Made by a program: the position numbers and the translations under genes. This document shows positions 2,083 through 15,889 of a stretch of DNA of 64,000 nt, one piece after another. Below the pieces are notes generated by a model, which was not told the origin of the DNA, ran no database searches, and worked only from the letters and a program-made list of their open reading frames with translations. The DNA comes from Torpedo marmorata (taxonomy: Eukaryota), in assembly GCA_977017645.1 (NCBI GenBank), contig OZ360220.1, positions 212,412,001 through 212,476,000 of the forward strand, written 5' to 3'. Each line of letters opens with the position of its first letter. The first letter of the stretch is position 1.

Positions 2083-4217
2083 GCAACATTCTAAGCATAT
2101 TCTGAGAGCAATGCTTAAACTCAAACATTTGTACTAAAGAAGGAAACAATCAATAGATTAGCTTGATCACCAAGTGCAGTTAAACACTTAATTGTGAATT
2201 TGTTAAACCTGGCAAATCTCAACCTCTTATATTAAATGCTTCATGAATACATTGTGAGGTGGTGAGAACTTTTTGCATAAACATAAGAAATGGGAGCAGG
2301 AGTAGACCATCTGGCCCGTGAAGCCTGCTCTGCCATTCAATAAGATCACAAGATCTGGAGCTTTGAGGATTTGGCTCAAGAGGCTTCGGCGAGCAGAACT
2401 GAGAAAGAGCTTGCTTGCTACCAGAGAGGTAATGCCAGGTTAGTTAGTTTAATCCCTTAATTAAATTTAGATAATGGAGTCAGCTAGGGCAGTGGATTGC
2501 TCTGGTTGCGGGATGTGGGAAATCTGGGACAGAACAATTGTCCCTAATGACTACACCTGCAAAAGGTGCATCCAGCTGCAGCTCCTCACAAACCGAGTAA
2601 AGGAGCTGGAGCTGGAGTTGGATGAACTGCGGATCTTGAGGGAGGCAGAGGCAGTTGTAGACAGGAGTTTCAGGGAGGCAGTTACCCCTAAAATTCAGGA
2701 GGCAGGTAGCTGGGTGGCTGTAAGGAGAGGGAAGGGGAAGATACAGACAGTGCAGAGTACCCCTGTGGCCGTTCCCATCATCAATAAGTATACCGTTTTG
2801 GATACTGTTGGTGGGGATGACCTACCAGGGACAAGTCTAGGCGGTCACGTCTCCGGCACAGAGGCTGGCCCCCCGGCTCAGAAGGGAAGGGGGGAGAAGA
2901 GGAGAGCGATGGTGATTGGGGACTCGTTGGTTAGACAAGTGGACTGGGGGTTCTGTGAACGAGATCGAGGCTCCAGGATGGTATGTTGCCTCCCAGGTGC
3001 CAGGGTCAGGGATGTCTCTGATCGAGTTCATAGCATTCTGGAGGGGGAGGGGGAGCAGCCGGTTGTCGTGGTCCACCTGGGGACCAATGACATAGATAGG
3101 AGTAGGGATGAGGTCCTGAAGAGAGAATATAGGGAGTTAGGAAAGAAGTTTAAAAAGCAGGACCTCAAGGGTGGTAATCTCAGGATTGCTGCCTATGCCA
3201 CGCGCCAGAGAGGGTAGGAACAGGAAGTTATGGCAGATGAATGCGTGGCTGAAGAGTTGGTGCAGGGGACAGGGGTTCAGATTTCTGGATCATTGGGATC
3301 TCTTCTGGGGAAGGTCTGACCTCCACAAAAAGGACGGGCTGCACCTGAACTGGAGAGGGACCAATATCCTGGTGGGCACGTTTGCTAGAGCTGTTGGGGA
3401 GGGTTTAAACTAGTCTAGCAGCGGGGTGGGAATCAAAATGTGAGTGCAGAGATTAGGGTAAAAGGGAACCAGGGTGTTAGGGTCGAGAAAGACGAAAATA
3501 GAAAAAAGTCAAAAATAATGTGCAGCAAAGATGACAAAAAGGACAGGCAGGTGAAAAGACAGGGTAATTTGCAGTACAATAGAAATACAGCAAAATCGGG
3601 AACAGATACTGGTCTAAGTGTACTGTACTTAAATGCACGGAGCATTAGGAATAAAGTAGATGTCCTTATTGTGCAGCTACAGATTAAAAGATATGACATT
3701 GTGGCTTAATGATGGATGTGATTGGGAGCTGAATGTCCACGGGTACACACTGTATAGGAAAGATAGGCAGGTAGATAGAGGGGGTGGCGTGGCCCTGATA
3801 GTAAGCAATGATATTAAATCACTAGAAAGAAGGGGCATAGAGTCAGAAGTGGTAGAATCCTTATGGGTTGAGTTAAGAAATGGCAAGGGTAAAAGAACCC
3901 TATTAGCAATTATATACAGGCCCCCAAACAGCAGCCGGGAAGTGGACTATGAGTTACAGATGGAAATAGAAAAAGCGTGTCAGAAGGAAAATGTCAAAAT
4001 AATTATGGGGGATTTTAACATGAAAGGGGATTGGGAAAGTCAGGAAGGTACTGGATCTCAGGAGAGAGAGTTTGTAGAGTGCCTACGGGATGGCTTTTTG
4101 GAACAGCTTGTCGATAAGCCCACCAGGGGATCGGAGGCTTTGGATTGGGTGATGTGTAATGAACCTGAGGTGATTAGGGAATTAAAGGTAATGGAACCAT
4201 TAGGAAGTAGTGATCAT

Positions 4218-4459
4218 AAAGGTAAAGGTAAAGGTTCCTTTATTGTCACGTAATACTACATTTAGAATGTAACATACATGAAATTCTTTAATTTTTGTCT
4301 ACTGTAAGGCAGACAGAGGGTCGCTATTTTGTCCAGTGCCCCTCAGAAACCTACAGCACCTGATGTTCCTTGGTGGTCTCCCCTCCAAGTACTAACCAGT
4401 CCTGTGCCTGCTTAGCTTCAGAGATCAGACAATCCCAGTTGTATTCAGGCTATTGGTGC
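4218..4459 (-). mobile_element. 5S rRNA-derived SINE (SINE3-type) with a LINE-like tail, inserted in the CR1 APE domain
   Basis: Reverse complement of 4347-4459 contains GTCTGATCTCTGAAGCTAAGCAGG...CTGGTTAGTACTTGGAGGGGAGACC...GGTGCTGTAGGTTT (5S internal promoter boxes). The tail ends TGACAATAAAGGA(ACCTTT)3. Confidence 0.85.
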
Positions 4460-5841
4460 TTGAGTTCAGTTTCAAACTTGAAAAGGAAAAGCTGATATCA
4501 GGTGTGTCAATATTTCAGTTGAACAAAGGAAATTACAGTGGTATGAGAGAGGAACTGTCCCAAGATGACTAGAAAAGTAAGCTAGATGGAGGGACAGCAG
4601 AGCAGAATTGGATGATATTTCTACAAGAAATAAAGAAAGTGCAGGATAGGTATATTCCAAGAAAAAAGAAAATTATGAATGGAAAAATGGCACAAATGTG
4701 GCTAACAAGAGAGGTTAAGGCTAAAATAAAAGCAAAAGGGAGGGCAATACAAGGAAGCAAAAATTAGTGGAAAAACAGAGGACTGGGAAACTTTTAAAAA
4801 CTCACAGAAAGAGACAAAGAAAGTCATTCGGAAAGAAAAGATGAATTATGAAAGGAAGTTGGCAAATAACATACAAAAGGATACTAAGAGTTTTTAAAAA
4901 TATATAAAGATTAAAAGAGGACCGATTGAAAATGATGCTGGAGGAACTATAATGGTAACAAAGAGATGGCAGAGGAACTAAATGAGTATTTTGCCTCAGT
5001 CTTCACTGAGGAAGATATAGTGACTTCAATCCAACAAATACCGGTAGTCACTTGGAAGCTAGGTGAGATACTTGTTCTTGACGCGTTTCAATTAATTTAC
5101 TAACAAAGTCCAATATGTTCAAAATGTTTATTAACACATGATGACTTGTAGCAATCTTCAATAACTTAAATATCTTCTTTAACAAAATATAAACAATTCT
5201 TAATAACGATGCTTAATAACGATTCTTCAAAACGTCTATAAAGGTAAAGTAACCAAGCCTATGGCTCTTACACTGGCCCCTAATTATTATAATTAGACGC
5301 AATGTCTTAAATAATAATTACACAATCAATTACAAATAACAATAACCATATAACATTCAAACAATATACAAATCTTCTTTTTTCATAAGACCAGAGTTTA
5401 CCATAACTCTGAATCAACAAAAGTCTGTAACCTGTGAAGTATACAACAACATAAAGTCAGTTTGTATTTATCAAAGTTCTTATATCTCCAGAATCTTTGA
5501 GTTAAAACGTCGACCAGTAAACCTCAAATCTTCCTCAGACAAAATAGATACAGTTTTTCTTTTAAATTTAACACGAGGTACTTCTTCAGCATGTCGTTTC
5601 ACTTTATTCCTTACTTCAGCATTCCACTTCTCATGTGAAGAATTTAAACTCTTAAAACCAGAATTTGAATATTTATCTGATCCTCTCGATTTTAATAAAC
5701 GAGTCTCTTTAACCACTCTGGTTTCCATTGCCTTTTCCTGCAATTCCAAATCCAATTTTGCAACTTTCAATTCAGTCTCAGTTCCTTCCGAGAAATTAAT
5801 AACTTGATCTGAAATGCATTGGTACTTCTATTGTCAACCCT

Positions 5842-6144
5842 ACTGTGGTAAACTTGAAATTTTTGAATTTCTTCATCTTGCTTGTTACATTTCTACAATG
5901 CAATATCACTTTCTTTCTGCATTGTTAGTAGTTGAACATTCAACTTACATTCTTGATTGTTTTCTATAATCAACTGGTTTGTGTTATTGACCAATAACTT
6001 GTAATTTTTCAAAATATTAATCTCTTCCTCCAACCTTTTACATTTTGACAATGCTGAATCTCTTTCTTTAATAACTGTATTTATTTCTTCAGCAGTTATT
6101 ATTTTCTTCCGCTTTCTGACTTTGCGAATTTTACTTACAATTAA
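5842..6144 (-). pseudogene. Intron-less MIPOL1-like coiled-coil fragment captured inside the BEL/Pao element
   Basis: Manual translation LIVSKIRKVRKRKKIITAEEINTVIKERDSALSKCKRLEEEINILKNYKLLVNNTNQLIIENNQECKLNVQLLTMQKESDIAL*KCNKQDEEIQKFQVYHS is colinear with recalled human MIPOL1 (ITAEE..ERD.ALSKCKRLE.E..ENNQE..LLSMQ..EEIQ..VYYS). Not in the ORF track. Confidence 0.75.
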
Positions 6145-6447
6145 ATCTTTCTGTTTACTGTTTTCATGATTATCCTATATTTCCAATTCCCCTTTCAACA
6201 TTTTGTTCTCTGAATTCAATTGCATTAAATTATCATTCACATTATTCTTTATTCCATCAGCACAATTTTCTGCGTTCTCCAGTTTTACATCACATTGCAA
6301 CACTTCTTATTTGACTTTGTCTGTTGTAACCTCTGAACTACAAAATCTACTTTCAGATTTGTTCTCAGTCACTTGTTTTATTCCAGTATCTGATTCAATT
6401 GAACATGAATAATCACTAGTATTATTTGCAACATCTTCTATTACTTC

Positions 6448-7323
6448 TGTTACAAAATCAAACCAGCAACGACAGAAGACGCAATGCAAAAGGGGTAAAA
6501 TTGAAATTTATATTTATTAATGACAATTAAACATATAATTTCACAACAATTAACCCCACTATAAACGTCTATAAACACTATTCTTATCTAAAAAGTATGT
6601 GTGTGTGTGTGTGTGTGTAAAGCCCAGACCATTACAGTCTGTGCCCAACCCTCATGTAAAAATGGAAAAACTTTCCCCAAAAACCCCAGGTCAGTCATAA
6701 AAACAAGTCAGTCAAAAAAAATATAATACAGTCCACAAAAATTCACTCTCTAAGTTCAGGTTCCACATTCAGCTCTGTGTGCTGGTAGAAGGACTTTTCA
6801 ATGAACGTTGGAGAGAGACAATGACTGTTTATGCTTACGAATACTTGGCTTGTTTTTCTTCTCTGATGACTTTCCCTTTTGGTAGAGATTCACGAGGATT
6901 GCGACTCCAAATCAGTATACCACTGATTGAGGCATGTACTTGGATCTCACAGCTGGTCTCGCTGATCTCACGCCTGTTCTCCACAAAAGTTGCTTTAACT
7001 CAGGATTTCTCTGAGACAAGAGGCCATGTGCTATTCTCCCATCCTTTTTCTCTGGGATGCACAAGCCTGGATTTTGCTGTGTTCTCTAGCCTTTGCAACT
7101 CCAAAACTGAATGCTTTTTGCAGAGGTTTGCACCTGCTTTTGCAAAAGTGCAACAAAGTATCTTTTCCACAGCCTGTCTCTCTCTGGTCTCTCTCTCTCT
7201 CTGGGTACACCAAGTCCTGGGGAAGTGAACTCTTTCAGTACCTGGTCCCAGTGTGTACTCCAAAAGACTTAATCCTTCCTGCTGACCGTCCGCAGTCCAA
7301 ATGGTCAGTCATGGTCCATAACA
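6448..7323 (-). mobile_element. Solo LTR (876 bp, probably Gypsy-type) inserted in the BEL internal region
   Basis: TGTTA...TAACA termini, 4-bp TSD CTTC (6444-6447, 7324-7327), minus-strand AATAAA near 6515. Removing it restores the frame ...DENEV|IEDVANN. Confidence 0.85.
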
Positions 7324-10300
7324 CTTCATTTTCATCCATTTCTGATAAACATAATTCCTTCAATGTTGTTTTAAATACCTTTGATTTATTTTCACATTGA
7401 TCTATTTTCTTTTCTTCAAAAGTGACTTTCTTATTCACAGTCTTTTGCACTTCCCTTAACTCATCAACTTTCACAACCGAAATCCTGTTAATATTTATCG
7501 CTAACTGTTCCTTAGCAATATCATTATTTCTTTCCAATGGTCCATTGATTGTCCAACCAAGTTTGGTTCTAACAGTGTAAGGTCCATCTCCCACACTCCG
7601 TATTACATCTAATGGTTCCAAAACCTTTGGTACATCTGAACCAATCAGCATTTCTATCTCAAAATTAACTTCAGGTAGACGAACATTTGACCACCGTTTA
7701 ATATCATTTTGATGAGGAATGTTTCCTTCATGCACAGTCTTCTGAGTGTATAAACTTGGAAGATCACAAAATTTTTTGTCATCCAATCCAGCAACCTCTA
7801 AGCCTGAAACAATGCTGGTTTCAACGACCTTTTCTTGTCCCATGGTTTTCAACATAATTCTTGACCTTCTTCCTTGAATATTAAGTTTGTTCATTAGTCC
7901 TTCCGTGCAAAAAGATGCAGTGCTACCTGGGTCTAGAAATGCATATGTACGTACTGTTGCATCCCCTTTCTTGGTCTTGACTTGTACAGGCACTATTGAA
8001 AGTTTGCAGTTATCTATACCAGCCCCAGTAAGACCACTTGTCTGAACCGAGGTTATAACATTGTTTTCTGTTGTTTCCTTTGTTTCTGTTTGCTCCTTTT
8101 CCAATTCCTTGTTTCTTTGATGGATATGCAAAATTCTAGGATGTTTCAAATTGCATATTTTACAGTTAATTCGCTTCTCGCAGTTTTTACTGATGTGCCC
8201 TTTACACAGACAGCTAAAACATACTCCAGTTTCCTTTAAGAAAGCATCTTCTCATTATGTTCCTTCTTTTCCAACCGTAAACACATTTCCAAAGTATGTC
8301 CACCTTTACAGAACAAACAACTCTTCTCATTAGTCAAACTTTCCTTTTCCTTATTTACTTTATCTTTTTCTTTATTTATAACTGACAGATTAGTAGCAAA
8401 AGTAATTCTTTTCAATTTCGGACTAGGTTGTGAGTTAGACCTCCTTACATCTTTGTTCCCCATTGAATTGTCTCTGGTATTTTCATAAATTGGATCTGTT
8501 TCAATGTACACCTGTTGTTCAAGAAAATTTACCAAGTCCTTTAAGGTAGCTCTTCGACTGTAATTTTCTTGTAAATCACAAGCCAAATTTCTACATCTAA
8601 CCCACAACTTGTAAGGTAATTTTTCTAAGATGATTCGCATATTACCAGGCACTTCAAGCTCACGAATATTATCGATATCTTCCATGGCATTACAACATCC
8701 TCTTAAAAATAGAGTATATGCTTGTAGAGCCTTTACATCATTCTGTTTTATTGATGTCCATTTAAGAGCTTTATCCATATAAGCTAAAGTAATTCGATGC
8801 TTGTTGCCAAAATGCTGTTCCAGTAAAGACTAAGATCTGTCTAATCCTCTGTCTGAGGACATATGTTGACAACTCTTTACAAGTTCTTTTAGATGTCCTT
8901 CTGTGAACATTTCCAAATAATAAAGACATTCATCAGGTTCTTGGCATTTATTTTCAATATTGCGTTTGAAAGATCTCATGAACGCTTGATACTGAAGTGG
9001 ATCACCATCAAAAGTTTGTATCTCTTTCTCAGGTAAAGACGAGAGAGACTGTAACTGAATCAATGATGCAGCAATTTCATTTTGTCTCCCCTGGTAATGT
9101 ACCTGGAAACCTCACGGTGTAGTTTCTCCCATATTTCTGATGCTTGACTCAAATGCCAAGGGAGCTGCATCGTTCGACCGAACCCAAGCCGCAGTTTTGT
9201 CTTCAGATGTTACCACTGGTACATGTGACTTGATATCACTATGCTCTTGAAAGATTTGTCCTTGTATTTGCAAGTCTTGTACACCTGGTGCTCAAATATC
9301 TACCCTTTTGGTTGGTTTCTTTTCCTGTGACTCTTTTTTAAAATATGACCTTTTATTATCATACACTTTAGATAATTTACTTTGAGCACCAGATACCATT
9401 GAGCCTTCTAGTACCTCTTTTTTTTGCCTTGGCAATAGTAATGTTTGCTTCCTGCTCCTGCTGCTCCTTTCTCTGCCTTAGCTGCTCTTTCTCTTGCCTT
9501 ATCTGCTCCTTTAGCTGCTCCTCCTTTTGTCTTAGCTGCTCCTCCTGTCGTTCTAAAATATGTTTATCCTTAAGTATTTTTTGTTGTGCAAGAAGAGCGG
9601 CCAAGTTAACTTCAATCTTTGTACGTGACGATGTAGAACTTGAAGTATGAGAAACTCTGGAGCTTGAACCAGAACTTCGTTTGCTTCTCCAGCTTTCAAC
9701 ATTTGAGACACTGTCACTTGCTTGTATTTCGTCCTGCAGGTCAGATGTTGTCTTCTTACTTACCTCCTTCACCAATTCGAATTGTACATCCTTTGCATCT
9801 TCATTTTCTTCATCCTTTTTATTTTCTTCATCACCATTTGATGACACAATTTCAGCCATTTTCACGTTGCTGTCTTCTTGTTCATCTAACGAAGCCGCCT
9901 CTTCTTCCTTTGCCAGCTTCAGTCTTCGATGAGAACCTTTTTATTTCCACTTATATCTAGTTTTTGACGCTTCAATTTTTCTTTGATATCCGCAACCTTC
10001 ATGTCTTCAATACGTTGGTCCTTAACAGCAACATCAGCGGTTGCTGCGTCAGCTGCTGCTGCGACCATTTTACTCGTCTTGTTCCACTGTCCTTCAAGCA
10101 TACACAACACTAGCCAAATCAACAGTCCCCAATGGACTAGCGGCAACAAATCCAATCTGTGTTCTAACTTGCCAAAGATACACAGAAGGAGTCCACAGAC
10201 TTATGCCTACCACTTCAGATGACTGTAATGTTCTGCTATTCACAAACGAGTTTCCACCACAACATCCGTCAATAATATCGCTGATTTTACAGAAATGGTT

Positions 10301-13179
10301 TCTCCAACGTATTTATAGGACACTTTACTATAAGATTTGAAGCTCTAAATCCATCTCTGGCTGTTATTCATGGCAGATAGATATGGATTACAAACTGCCC
10401 CTAACTCGAGGCATCTCCAAGATGTCCACCATTTTATTTTAAATAGCAGTCCAAAGCACAGAGAGATTATTGTATCTTCTTTCCTTCAATTTTCTGTTCC
10501 AAACAATAATTCTTTCATTGACTAACATATAGTGACTTCAATCCAACAAATAGTCACTTGGAGTCTAGGTGAGATACTTGTTCTTGACGCGTTTCTATTA
10601 ATTTACTAACAAAGTCCAATATGTTCAAAATGTTTATTAACACATGATGACTTGTAGCAATTTTAAATAACTTAAATATCTTCTTTAACGAAATATAAAC
10701 AATTCTTAATAACGATGCTTAATAACGATTCTTCAAAACGCCTATAAACTTCCTTTAAACGATTCCTTTAAAACTCATTTAAACATCCTTTAAATGTACT
10801 TTAAAACATTACATTAAACGTTCTTTTGACGGTCAATGAAAGATATGAGGATCTCACTCACCCTCCTCTAAGCCGCCATATTTTCTACTCCTTCTTCTCC
10901 GATTTGCGCATGCTCCAACCGCGCATACTCCACCGCGCATACTGCCGTCACTTCCCAACTGCGCATGTGCCCGTCGGCACACTAGCACATACGCAGAGTA
11001 CGCAATAGGCCCAGCACGGCCTACTAATCTCCGTGTCTCCTCCGAACCCCGCTGAGACCATCGGAAAGCCGCGATTAAGGTAAGTATCCAAGCCTACGGC
11101 TCTTACAGAAGACAATAGCAATATACCTGATAGTCAGAGGTCTCAGGGAATAGAATTAAGTACAGTCAGGATTACTAGAGAGATAGTCTTAGTAAGCTGA
11201 ATGGACTAAAGATAGATAAGTCTCCTGGACCGGATGAGGTGCACCCACGGGTTCTGAAGGAGGTGGCTTTGGAGATTGTGGAGGCATTGGAAATGATTTT
11301 CCTGAAATCAATAGACTGGTTCCGGAGGATTGGAAGTTTGTAAATGTAGTTCTGCTGTTTAAGAAAGGAGGGAGGCAGAAAAAAGGAAATTATAGGCCTA
11401 TTAGTCTGACGTCGGTAGTTGGAAAGTTATTGGAGTTGATCCTCAAGGACGAGGTTATGAAATACCTTGAGGTGCATGACATGATAAGTCCAAGCCAGCA
11501 TGGTTTCACGAAGGGAAGATCCTGCCTGACCAACCTATTGGAATTTTTTGAGGTAATCTCAAGTAGGATGGACAAGGGAGAGGCTGTGGATGTTGTGTAT
11601 TTGGATTTTCAAAAGGCCTTTGATAAGGTGCCGCATAAGAGGCTACTTAATAAGATGAGAGCCCATGGAATTACAGGAAAGATATTAGATTGGGTGGAGC
11701 ATTGGCTGATAGGCAGGAAGCAATGGGTGGGAATAAAGGGATCCTGTTCTGGTTGGTTGCCGGTTACTAGTGGTGTTCCGCAAGGGTCGGTGTTGGGGCC
11801 ACTTCTTGTTACAATGTATATTGATGATTTAGATTATGGATTGAATGGTTTTGTGGCTAAGTTTGTAGATGTCACCAAGATAGGTGGTGGAGTAAGAAGT
11901 GTTGAAGAAACCGAAAGGTTGCAGAGAGACTTGGACAGCTTAGGAGAGTGGGCAAAGAAATGGCAGATGAGATACAATGTTGAGAAATGTACGGTTGTAC
12001 ATTTTGGAAAGGAAATAAACAGGCAGATTATTATTTGGATAGGGAGAAAATTCAAAATTCGGAAGTGCAAAGGGACTTGGGGGTCCTCGTGCAGGATAAC
12101 CTAAAGGTTAACCACCAGGTTGGATCGGCAGTAAAGAACGCGAATGCTATGTTGGCATTCATTTCAAGAGGAATAGTGTATAAGAGTAAAGAGGTGTTGA
12201 TGAGGCTCTATGGGGCACTGGTGAGACCTCATTTGGAGTACTGTGTGCAGTTTTGGGCCCCTTATCTTAGAAGGGGTGTAATGATGTTGGAGAGAGTACA
12301 GAGAAGATTTACCAGGATGATTCGTGGAAGGCAGGGGCTAACATATGAGGAACGTTTAGCGGCTCTTGGACTGTATTCATTGGAGTATAGAAGAATAAGA
12401 GGGGATCTCATAGAAACATTTCGAATGCTGAAAGGATTGGACAGAGTAGATGTGAATAAGATGTTTCCCTTGGTGGGTGAATCTAGGACAAGAGGGCAAA
12501 GTCTTAGAATTAGAAGGTACCCATTTTAAGCCGAGATGAGGAGAAATTTCTTTAGCCAGAGGGTCGTGTATTTGTGGAATTCGTTGCCACATACAGCTGT
12601 GGAGGCCCGATCATTGGGGGATTTTAAGGAGGAGATTGATAGGTATCTAATTAGTCAGGGTATCAAGGGATATGGGGAAAAGGCCGGAATTTGGAATTAG
12701 ATGTGAGAATAGTTTAGCTCAAAGTGGAGTTGCGGAGCAGACTCGATGGAAGTAGTAAAAACTAAGTAGAAAAAAATGATTGTCAGTATAGCAATATAGA
12801 ATAGCATTAGCTTAAGCATACATGAAACTGCCAACTACTAATTATAAATTTCTGCACAAATTTGATTTTTTCCCCAAAAAATTTAAATTTTATCAAGATG
12901 GAAAATTGAGCTGAGCAAAAACTTATAAAAGCAGCCAAAGTGATAAGAGCACTTGATCATCTCATTCAATACTGAAGCAACACCAAGCATTTTATTTATA
13001 CATGCATAAAACGAGTTAGGAACCTCAAACTAAATGTGTTTGGTGTGATTAGTTTGATATTTTCACAATGTTACGGCCAGCAGATGGGGCAGACGGAGGG
13101 AAACTGTGGACAGTGGCAGACCTTTCAACTGTGAGTCATCAGAACTTAGTGTCCAATAAAACGTGCCACATAGGAGACA

Positions 13180-15785
13180 GTAAAAAACACAAATGCTGGA
13201 GAAACTCAGCAGGTCAAACAATGTATTTTATGTAGCAAAGGTAGAAATACATAACCGACGTTTCGGGCTTGAGCCCTTCATCAAAGTATGAGAAAATGCC
13301 GGTAGGCATCCGAACAAAAGAGTGAGGGGGGGAAGTGGGGTGGCAAAGGCAGAAGATGATAGGTGGAGAAAGGAGGGAGGGGACAGCAGCAAAGAGGGGG
13401 AGGAGGGATGGCTAGGTAGCTGGAGAAAAACAGGAAAGGCAGGTGAGGGGGAGGGGAAGGGAACGACAAGCAGGTTTAGTGGAAAGCAGAAAAGTCAATG
13501 TTAATGCCATCTGGCTGGAGAGTGCCCAGATGGAAAATGAGATGTTGTTCCTCCAATTTGCGGGTAGTCTGGGTGGGATAGTACATAAGGCCATGGACAG
13601 ACATTTGAGTGTGGGAGTATGACCCGGAATTCAAATGGTTGGCTACTGGGAGGTCGCTATTGTTGCAGAAGGAGAGGAGGTGCTCAGCAAAGCGATCTCC
13701 CAATCTACGACCGGTCTCTCCAATGTAGAGAAAGCCACAAAGGGAGCACCGGATGCAGTAAATAAGTTCTCTGGATGTACAAGTGAAGTGTAGTTTCACT
13801 TGGAAGGCCTGTTTGGGGCCCTGGACCGTGGTGAGGGGGGAGGTGTGGGCGCAGGTGTTGCACCTCCTGCGGGCACAGGGGAAGGTGCCGGGGGTGCGAT
13901 GGGTGGGGACGGATGAGTGCACGAGTGAATCGCGGAGGGAGCGGTCCCTACGGAAGGTCGAGAGGGGAGGAGAAGGAAAAATGTGTCTGGTGGTGGGATC
14001 CTGTAGTAAGTGCCGGAAATTCTGGCGGATAATGTGTTGGATGCGAAGGCTGGTGGGGTGGTAGGTGAGGATGAGGGGGATTCTATGTTTGTTGCGTCTG
14101 GGGGCAGAGGGGGCCAGGGCAGATGAGCGGGAAATGGAGGAGATGCGGGTGAGGGCTGAGTTGATGGTGGTGGAGGGGAAGCCACGTTTGTGGAAAAAGG
14201 CAGGCATTTCAGAAGATCTGGACTGGAACAACTCATCTTGGGAACAGATGCGGCGGAGGCGGAGAAATTGAGAGAAGGGGATGGAGTCCTTGCAGGGGAC
14301 AGGGTGTGAGGATGTGTAGTCCAGATAGTTGTGGGAGTTGGAGGGTTTGTAGTAAATGTCAGTGGAAAGCTTGTCTCCCGAGATGGAGACAGAGAGATCC
14401 AGGAAGGGGAGAGTGTTATCGGAGATGGACCAGGTGAGTTTGAGATCGTGGTGGAAGTTGGATGCGAAGTGGATGAAGTTGACAAGCTCATCGCGGGTGC
14501 ATGAGGCAGCCCCGATGTAGTCGTTGATATAACGGAGGAAGAGATGAGGGGTCTTGCCTGTGTAGGCTTGCAGCATGGATTGCTCCACAAAGCCCACAAA
14601 CAGGCAGGTGTAGCTGGGACCCATGCGGGTACCCATGGCTACTCCTTTGATTTGGAAGAAGTGGGATGAGTTGAAGGAGAAGTTATTGAGAGTGAGGACA
14701 AGTTCTGCCAGGCGGAGGAGGGTGGTGGTAGAGGGTGACTGGTCGCGTCTTTGGTCCAGGAAGAAGCGAAGTGCTTTCAGACCTTCTGTGTGGAGGATAG
14801 AGGTATAAAGGGATTGGACATCCATGGTGAAGATGATGCGGTCCAGTTCAGGGAATCTGAAGTCATTGAGGAGATGGAGGGCATGTGAGGTGTCGCGGAT
14901 GTAGGTGGGGAGGGATTGGAGCAGGGGAGAAAAGATGGAGTCAAGGTAAGATGAAACTAGTTCGGTGGGGCAGGAGCAGGCAGAAACAATGGGTCTGCCC
15001 GGATGGTTGGGTTTGTGTATCTTGGGTAGAAGGTAGAAACGGGCAGTGCGGGGGTGGGGGAGAATGAGGTTGGTGGCCGTGGAGGGGAGGTGACCGTAGG
15101 TGTTGAGGTCGGAGATGGTGCTGGAGACAGTGGCTTGATGTGCTGTGGTGGGGTCCTGTGGGAGGGGTCGGTAGGAGGAGGTGTCTGAGAGTTGTCGACT
15201 GGCCTCGGCAAGGTAGAGGTCAGTGCGCCAGACCACAACCGCACCGCCCTTGTCTGCGGGTTTGATGGTGAGGTTGGGATTGTTGCGGAGAGAGTGGAGG
15301 GCAGAGCGTTCTGAGGAGGTGAGGTTGGAATACGAGAGGGGGGTGGTGAATTTGAGACGGTTGATGTCTTGGCGGCAGTTGGAAATAAAAAGGTCCAGAG
15401 CAGGCAGCTGGCCAGGGCGAGGTGTCCAGGAAGAGTAAGAAGGCTTGAGGCGGGAGAAAGGGTCTTGGGTGGAGGGTGGAGAGTCACGGTCATGGAAGTG
15501 AGCACGGAGGCGGAGGCGACGGAAGAAGAGTTCGGCATCATGGCGTGCGCAGAACTCGTTGAGGTGTTGGCAGAGGGGGACGAAGGTGAGGCCTCTACTG
15601 AGGACGGAGCGCTCTGTCTCAGAGAGGGGAAGGTCGGAGGGGATAGTAAAAACCAAGCAGGGGTTAGAGTGGGGATCGGTGTTGTGGAGGGTGTTGGGGG
15701 GAGGGGGAGGGTTGGGGAGGTGGAGGGTGGGGGAGGTTGGAGGGAGGGGGAGGGGGGGTCGGAGGGGGGAGGTGGGGGGTAGGGG
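13180..15785 (-). mobile_element. 5'-truncated Penelope-like retroelement (RT + GIY-YIG endonuclease)
   Basis: Uninterrupted frame of about 770 aa: IKPADKG, FYLLPKIHK, GVAMGT, RYIND (YIDD mutated), IYCIRC..LYIGETGR. TSD AGGAGACA (13172-13179, 15786-15793). Confidence 0.92.
13247..13289 (-). ncRNA. Minimal type-I hammerhead-ribozyme-like motif in the Penelope terminal repeat
   Basis: ATACT-TTGATGA-A-GGGC tcaa GCCC-GAAAC gtcg GTTA-TGTAT. Penelope-like elements are known to carry minimal hammerheads. The core here is UUGAUGA rather than CUGAUGA. Confidence 0.6.
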
Positions 15786-15889
15786 AGGAGACAATTTGGC
15801 CCATTCTTTCTCTGCCGATCAAAAAAGTGCATTCCAATCCATTTCCACTTTGCAGAATTGGGTCCAAAACCCTGCAGCTCATGAATAGT

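Follow-up and report, generated by a model that had tools for sequence, protein, structure and literature searches.

A non-autonomous BEL/Pao family in Torpedo marmorata with pieces of BRCA1, MIPOL1 and Elongin A in place of its pol enzymes, the MIPOL1 piece very likely copied from a circular RNA

Introduction

That long terminal repeat (LTR) elements capture pieces of several host genes, and that pseudogenes derived from circular RNA (circRNA) occur near LTRs, is already known, as far as the accessible text of the reports goes (PMC5131818, PMC13317346, PMC4897178). Here we analyze a 64,000-nucleotide (nt) stretch of the Torpedo marmorata genome, referred to throughout as the window (G000:C2:212412001-212476000 of a 6.2-Gb assembly), which carries a dead member of a non-autonomous BEL/Pao family with pieces of host genes in place of the pol enzymes. 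We suggest, with a probability of about 0.72, that spliced BRCA1 RNA, back-spliced MIPOL1 RNA and Elongin A RNA were captured by template switching and have persisted in this family as frame-keeping filler.

In the available parts of its descriptions, the maize LTR element Bs1 combines exonic fragments from three unlinked host genes into a hybrid open reading frame (ORF), has undergone secondary retroposition and is present in 1-5 copies per Zea species (PMC5131818, PMC13317346). The window family likewise joins three unlinked host genes in the hybrid ORF of an LTR element and was secondarily retroposed, but it numbers about 12,000 copies, belongs to vertebrate BEL/Pao elements, contains a back-spliced piece, has left preserved intermediates and shows selection on the frame only. 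LTR-mediated retrocopies, among them one in the Pao element BATUMI that combines two genes, were described by Tan et al. (2016, PMC5131818), where the term 'circRNA' occurs 0 times. Judged from the accessible portion of that article, the retrocopies resemble the window family in that partial mRNAs replace part of an internal ORF, short words may be shared at the switch points, both LTRs are kept and further copying took place; theirs, however, are young low-copy loci, whereas the window represents a whole family whose frame is kept across subfamilies.

Mouse circRFWD2 pseudogenes (33 high-confidence copies, with LTR sequence enriched in their flanks) arose by a mechanism termed 'mysterious' (Dong et al. 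2016, PMC4897178), and how circRNAs enter genomes was left open there. They share with the window family a non-colinear exon junction, circle-resident exons only, multiple copies and an association with LTRs; going by the available text, the window family differs in that the circle lies inside the element's ORF, both switch points are visible and the junction is present in 4,781 exact copies. The mouse element IAP 1Δ1, as far as its accessible description goes, is non-autonomous, carries an in-frame Gag-Pol fusion ORF, outspreads its helper and is reported to owe a cis-acting effect to the fusion (PMC6466679). The window family is also non-autonomous with the frame kept through a fusion, but a plain deletion underlies IAP 1Δ1, whereas host coding RNA fills the gap in the window family, in which a cis effect is surmised. 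In the literature within our reach, which excluded most subscription papers, we came across neither this family nor an LTR element whose ORF had taken up a circle in frame, and no paper on circMIPOL1.

Results

Pieces of three host genes replace the pol enzymes

Searched with an intact natural BEL ORF of the same genome (residues 881-1915), positions 4900-11200 of the window gave no match to reverse transcriptase (RT), RNase H or integrase, in agreement with the initial annotation, which had seen none of these enzymes after the protease. The window backbone is 83.5% DNA-identical to an intact BEL copy over 7445-10679 and matches this copy up to residue 895 and again from residue 2013, with nothing in between; the intact copy has Pfam matches to Peptidase_A17, RVT_1, rve and DUF5641. 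The initial annotation had proposed that spliced RNA of one host gene, MIPOL1, replaced pol in frame with Gag-protease. Capture of spliced host RNA in this position and frame stands, but the donors are three. MIPOL1 accounts for 9/9 matches of a 297-amino-acid (aa) query from copy L027 (best, shark MIPOL1, 62% over 103 aa, E 4e-25), and window positions 6174-5842, with X at the stop, are 57% identical to shark MIPOL1 over 106 aa; the peptide reads as described earlier. The stretch between protease and MIPOL1 is BRCA1 (12/12 matches; 80% to Narcine, E 5e-72) and that after MIPOL1 is Elongin A (PF06881, E 8e-16; PDB Elongin-A, E 2e-47; Narcine, E 2e-97), the best protein matches of both coming from the electric ray Narcine. 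What had gone unnoticed are both BRCA1 parts (7448-7336, 6438-6141), Elongin A (5714-5493) and a second MIPOL1 piece (5842-5702), which comes from farther upstream in the gene but lies downstream in the element. A local Pfam scan names neither the MIPOL1 nor the BRCA1 piece. We regard the anatomy and the three donors, laid out below in the order of the element, as virtually certain.

11112-11108, minus strand: target-site duplication (TSD) TCTTC before the 5' LTR
11107-10528, minus strand: 5' LTR, then a primer-binding-site-like TAGTCAA motif also present in intact BEL copies
8240..10070, minus strand: gag, broken by stops and frameshifts, with an N-terminal SAP domain (PF02037, E 1e-7)
7450..8251, minus strand: last knuckles and aspartic protease (AFLDPGS), ending at the cargo switch point
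7336..7448, minus strand: BRCA1 cargo, first part; host exon C61:25497376-25497229, 88-89% identity
6448..7323, minus strand: unrelated solo LTR, a later insertion into the window copy, with 4-bp duplication GAAG
6141..6438, minus strand: BRCA1 cargo, second part; 5' portion of the large exon, from host position C61:25488548 on (80%, E 2e-79)
5843..6148, minus strand: MIPOL1 cargo, host exons E (3' part)-F-G, spliced, about aa 248-347
5843/5842, minus strand: back-splice junction, exon G end to exon A start, one letter changed in the window
5702..5842, minus strand: MIPOL1 cargo corresponding to aa 88-168 (exons A and B), with an internal deletion
5493..5714, minus strand: what remains of the Elongin A cargo, from two exons; the window's subfamily lacks the BC-box and later parts
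5273..5490, minus strand: end of the pol tail, 3' untranslated region and polypurine tract (PPT, about 5282-5273)
5272-5016, minus strand: 3' LTR, internally deleted
5015-5011, minus strand: TSD TCTTC after the 3' LTR

LTRs, a short TSD, a PPT, and BEL-related Gag knuckles and protease place the family in BEL/Pao. CCHC-type knuckles run on from gag to about 8130, and the protease region matches DUF1758 and Asp_protease_2, both below the curated Pfam cut-off. The TSD, both LTRs and the PPT named in the initial annotation are all present, as are the stops at 6307, 6175 and 5893, to which we add a frame change near 5830. The solo LTR, of 876 nt with TG..CA ends, was also recognized correctly. It is private to the window: 28/29 other loci have no insertion at its site, one (L019) has about 685 other bases there, and natural copies are open across the site in one frame (L014, 731 aa; L027, 484 aa). 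LTRs resembling it adjoin other loci. About 163 nt of the DUF5641 coding region, present in 24/29 sister loci, are missing from the window copy, whose LTR pair differs by 4.7%.

The host genes lie on three contigs (BRCA1 on C61, MIPOL1 on C40, Elongin A on C41). Besides window-type copies, the family contains an older form. In three of its copies the cargo can be assigned exon by exon, introns absent, to the host genes, with 90-98% identity to 4 exons of BRCA1, 5 of MIPOL1 and 5 of Elongin A; next in the older-form cargo come 18 nt from the start of a sixth exon of MIPOL1. The BRCA1 piece covers aa 241-416, starting at aa 201 in the longest copies, and the Elongin A piece of older copies runs from aa 377 to about 624. 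Median identity to the host exons is 84% in the window's subfamily and 94% in older-form copies, so that the long residence suggested initially applies to the former but not to the latter. Adjoining pieces share AG at the BRCA1-MIPOL1 switch point and GACAGA at the Elongin A-tail switch point; apparent microsimilarity of 2-6 nt is seen at three junctions, and about 19 nt at the MIPOL1-Elongin A junction have no assigned donor.

In a HMMER search of 1.84 billion proteins, top matches hit either the protease or MIPOL1, and the 11 entries read of the top 150 were all linear MIPOL1, none a chimeric protein. Under two organism labels, contigs from runs guessed to be RNA extend across junctions of the cargo, and the stretch is also present under a third; we do not count them as evidence of transcription. 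A candidate for longer cargo, L083 (G000:C25:175316616-175319723), was rejected, since it proved to be an exon from another gene, which resembles Elongin A (67% to aa 598-658). Separately, the Narcine BRCA1 isoform X2 model (P0014) has a transposon Gag-like stretch at aa 1-175, with no RING family listed; this stretch matches a repeat inserted in L077 at 35% and is probably a quirk of annotation or exonisation.

MIPOL1 exons are joined at a back-splice junction

When the genome was searched with shark MIPOL1, many loci were found to have aa 218-347 directly followed by aa 88-181. Mapping of host exon junctions explains this order: the host gene runs A-B-C-D-E-F-G-H, the element E(part)-F-G-A-B-C(start), joined without introns. 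Host exon G ends in TACTACAG followed by the splice donor gt (C40:64385712), and host exon A starts, after taatag, with CAGGGCTG at an acceptor 206 kb upstream of exon G (C40:64591881). The join in the element reads TACTACAGCAGGGCTG, that is, exon G end to exon A start, exact to the nucleotide, while the normal next exon of the host gene lies 62 kb downstream of exon G. The MIPOL1 match is therefore intron-free, as first proposed, but does not represent a colinear mRNA. Since a junction of a downstream exon end to an upstream exon start is a back-splice, the template was most likely a circular RNA.

A search for MIPOL1 exon C hit only the host gene and one further locus, L137 (G000:C59:59655034-59658153), a 5'-truncated two-gene intermediate. 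L137 consists of a pol spacer, an in-frame jump to a 58-nt piece of the RT end, BRCA1, MIPOL1 and a complete DUF5641 tail in frame, with no Elongin A. Its MIPOL1 part, E(part)-F-G-A-B-C-D(part), comprises about 93% of a circle of about 780 nt, a span also seen in a linear host contig of run X3 (587 + 191 letters). Entry and exit are separated by a gap of about 56 nt, less than one turn, and no MIPOL1 sequence comes from outside the circle. The host exon downstream of G matches only the host gene and no element copy, and in the search with shark MIPOL1 all matches among the 150 listed start at aa 83 or later, no separate search having been made for exons upstream of A.

The permuted order might instead have come from linear RNA, if the RT jumped backward at a few shared letters or if trans-splicing or exon repetition took place. 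Other switch points of the element use short shared words (AG, GACAGA), and the exon edges share AG before and C after the boundary; a linear mRNA thus likely shares about 3 nt (AGC) at both edges, which makes a backward jump possible and counts against a circle, as do the element copies, which mimic the circle's junction; the circle is known here from DNA only. However, both ends of the permutation fall exactly on splice sites, whereas the other switch points lie inside exons; exon-edge pairs make up at most 0.7% of the site pairs sharing 3 nt (rough count). Copying in L137 covers less than one turn and never leaves the circle's exons, and one host donor exon and one host acceptor exon were found, with no duplicate, so that we consider a linear origin unlikely. 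A circular RNA as MIPOL1 template, as read from the genomic sequence, appears very likely.

Introns of the host MIPOL1 gene harbor three window-type copies (L049, L057; G000:C40:64407001-64497000), a higher density than the average over the genome. Two of them are oppositely oriented on either side of exons D and E and could in principle pair in the pre-mRNA.

Selection kept the reading frame rather than the cargo residues

We compared 30 window-type and 12 older-type copies. In most of them, the junctions are in the host genes' own frames: the pol-BRCA1 junction in 29/29 window-type and 9/10 older-type copies, the BRCA1-MIPOL1 junction in 30/30 and 11/11, the MIPOL1-Elongin A junction in 29/30 and 9/10, and the Elongin A-pol tail junction in 17/22 window-type copies (complete series 29/29, 30/30, 20/25, 29/30, 17/22 and 9/10, 11/11, 10/11, 9/10, respectively). 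All 7/7 shared deletions of at least 24 nt are multiples of three (282, 87, 111, 24, 120, 81 and 195 nt), versus 54/163 rare indels (P 5e-4). This count disregards 1-nt indels private to the reference copy, as well as all indels past about position 6360 of that copy, since the 3' end of the window type derives from a different backbone. No stop in the cargo is fixed between the subfamilies' commonest codons, where 6.4 are expected (P 0.0014).

With single-copy variants as the neutral yardstick, the relative ratio of nonsynonymous to synonymous changes (N/S) for variants shared by several copies is 0.93 in the cargo (p 0.71) and 0.46 in Gag-protease (p 3e-6). Between types it is 0.94 (p 0.82) and 0.37 (p 2e-7), respectively, although the Gag-protease value partly measures the divergence of two helper lineages. 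Sequence comparison indicates that selection kept the frame and not the cargo residues, with Gag-protease constrained.

These data also bear on whether the cargo works as a protein, either through a freed MIPOL1 coiled coil, as first envisaged, or through an Elongin A BC-box that would recruit Elongin BC and a cullin ligase to the benefit of the element. Viral BC-box proteins recruit this ligase; the cargo retains native host frames, a BC-box stretch is recognizable in 9/12 older copies, and Elongin A residues may be weakly constrained (relative N/S 0.43, p 0.11, 19 changes only), the last a point against pure frame-keeping. However, N/S between subfamilies is 1.11x neutral for BRCA1 and 1.10x neutral for MIPOL1 (p 0.85), and the MIPOL1 piece was cut by later deletions, so that a functional released coiled coil is not borne out. 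The BRCA1 piece (aa 201-416) lies outside the BRCT region and the aa 1455-1503 stretch, the parts that match solved structures. No BC-box is left in the window's subfamily, the junction variant of which predominates among the first 100 matches listed, and L137 suggests that the family started without Elongin A. A protein function of the cargo would accordingly be improbable; the cargo is probably filler rather than a functional host protein.

A large family with a likely change of backbone

A 20-nt pattern across the back-splice junction has 4,781 exact matches in the genome, versus 0 for a control pattern. As 17/42 sampled copies match it exactly, we estimate about 12,000 copies (9,600-13,000). 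The insertion is thus not a one-off, and an assembly artefact was rejected in view of thousands of copies with distinct flanks. TSDs differ between copies (5 bp, exact in 5 copies, 4/5 letters in 2 more); spread in trans after the capture, proposed earlier, is borne out by copies that share the junction and have distinct TSDs. The two LTRs of a copy, where the pair is clean, diverge by 3.4-8.7% in the window type and by 5-12% in the older type; only clean pairs are quoted, 6/23 cargo copies having given no pair and several being mixed with other repeats.

Among 12 fetched BEL loci are intact helpers with ORFs of 2,018 and 2,054 aa and LTR pairs 99.8-100% alike. The family shares its PPT with intact BEL relatives and, for the window's subfamily, also its backbone: window-type copies are 83-90% identical in Gag-protease and 80-87% in the 3' tail to 8/12 RNase H-bearing BEL loci, and older-type Gag-protease is 72-75% identical to all 12. 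Between the types, synonymous divergence (dS) is 0.41-0.46 in Gag-protease, twice the cargo's 0.21. Because dS differs in this way and helper identities differ by type, the cargo likely moved onto the backbone of another helper. Many BEL elements in this genome have frames of more than 2,000 aa and near-identical LTRs, and the superfamily was active very recently.

Natural copies, from which we infer the order of events, suggest five steps. An internal pol deletion would have come first, followed by the capture of BRCA1 and of the MIPOL1 circle, with the frame running on into the pol tail (the L137 form). Elongin A would then have replaced the circle's last exons and most of the tail (the older form); in-frame deletions would have ensued, and the cargo would finally have shifted to another helper's Gag-protease and 3' tail (the window's form). 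One older copy carries a 378-aa transposase frame inserted in its cargo (L031:2135-3268), which we take to be Tc1/pogo-like.

Proposed mechanism and implications

We propose that host RNAs, one of them circular, were co-packaged in element particles and that template switches of the RT copied pieces of them into the element. A capture would persist only if ribosomes read through to near the 3' end; such read-through might stabilize the RNA or let its own Gag package it in cis. The element would make Gag-protease, while helpers would provide RT, RNase H and integrase in trans. As both switch points around the circle lie inside the LTR ORF and intermediates are preserved, LTR template switching is directly implicated. 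We lean towards the view that, in the particle, the RT went almost once around a host circular RNA, and that selection for read-through alone built a three-gene ORF, which was amplified about 12,000-fold.

Several further points weigh against this account. The copies compared were chosen by score, not at random, and no helper matching the older form was found among the 12 fetched BEL loci. In the older form, the Elongin A-tail junction is out of the pol frame, although the ORF still runs for about 70 codons to near the PPT. Among the 30 window-type copies, 5 have a deletion of 113 instead of 111 nt and 8 are out of frame between the two Elongin A exons. Ten codon columns have a stop common to 2-7 copies; six are CGA to TGA changes, two of those in gag.

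The cargo might alternatively act as a nucleotide-level shield, in that small RNAs directed at the element would at the same time target the mRNAs of BRCA1, MIPOL1 and Elongin A, leading to less silencing of the element by the host. While the donors are three conserved single-copy genes and the family reached about 10^4 copies, the cargo has drifted to 84% identity (dS 0.23 from the host), large parts of it are lost in the most numerous form, and the keeping of the frame would be left unexplained; we regard a shield as very improbable.

If our account of filler kept in frame holds, the family is a nucleotide-resolved fossil series of the entry of a circular RNA into a genome, together with a function-blind filter that mass-produces in-frame chimeras. 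It would show how chimeras of several genes can form in frame and in large numbers, and, by separating selection on the frame from selection on the protein, it advises caution in calling captured in-frame genes functional. In this genome, about 10^4 look-alikes of BRCA1, MIPOL1 and Elongin A will confuse annotation, circRNA calling and read mapping.

In the surroundings of the window copy, the host element is a CR1/L2-like long interspersed nuclear element, whose ORFs flank the copy at 2471-4940 and 11110-12530. A 780-aa open frame at 13476-15818 on the minus strand, RT plus GIY-YIG-like, is presumably of the Penelope type.

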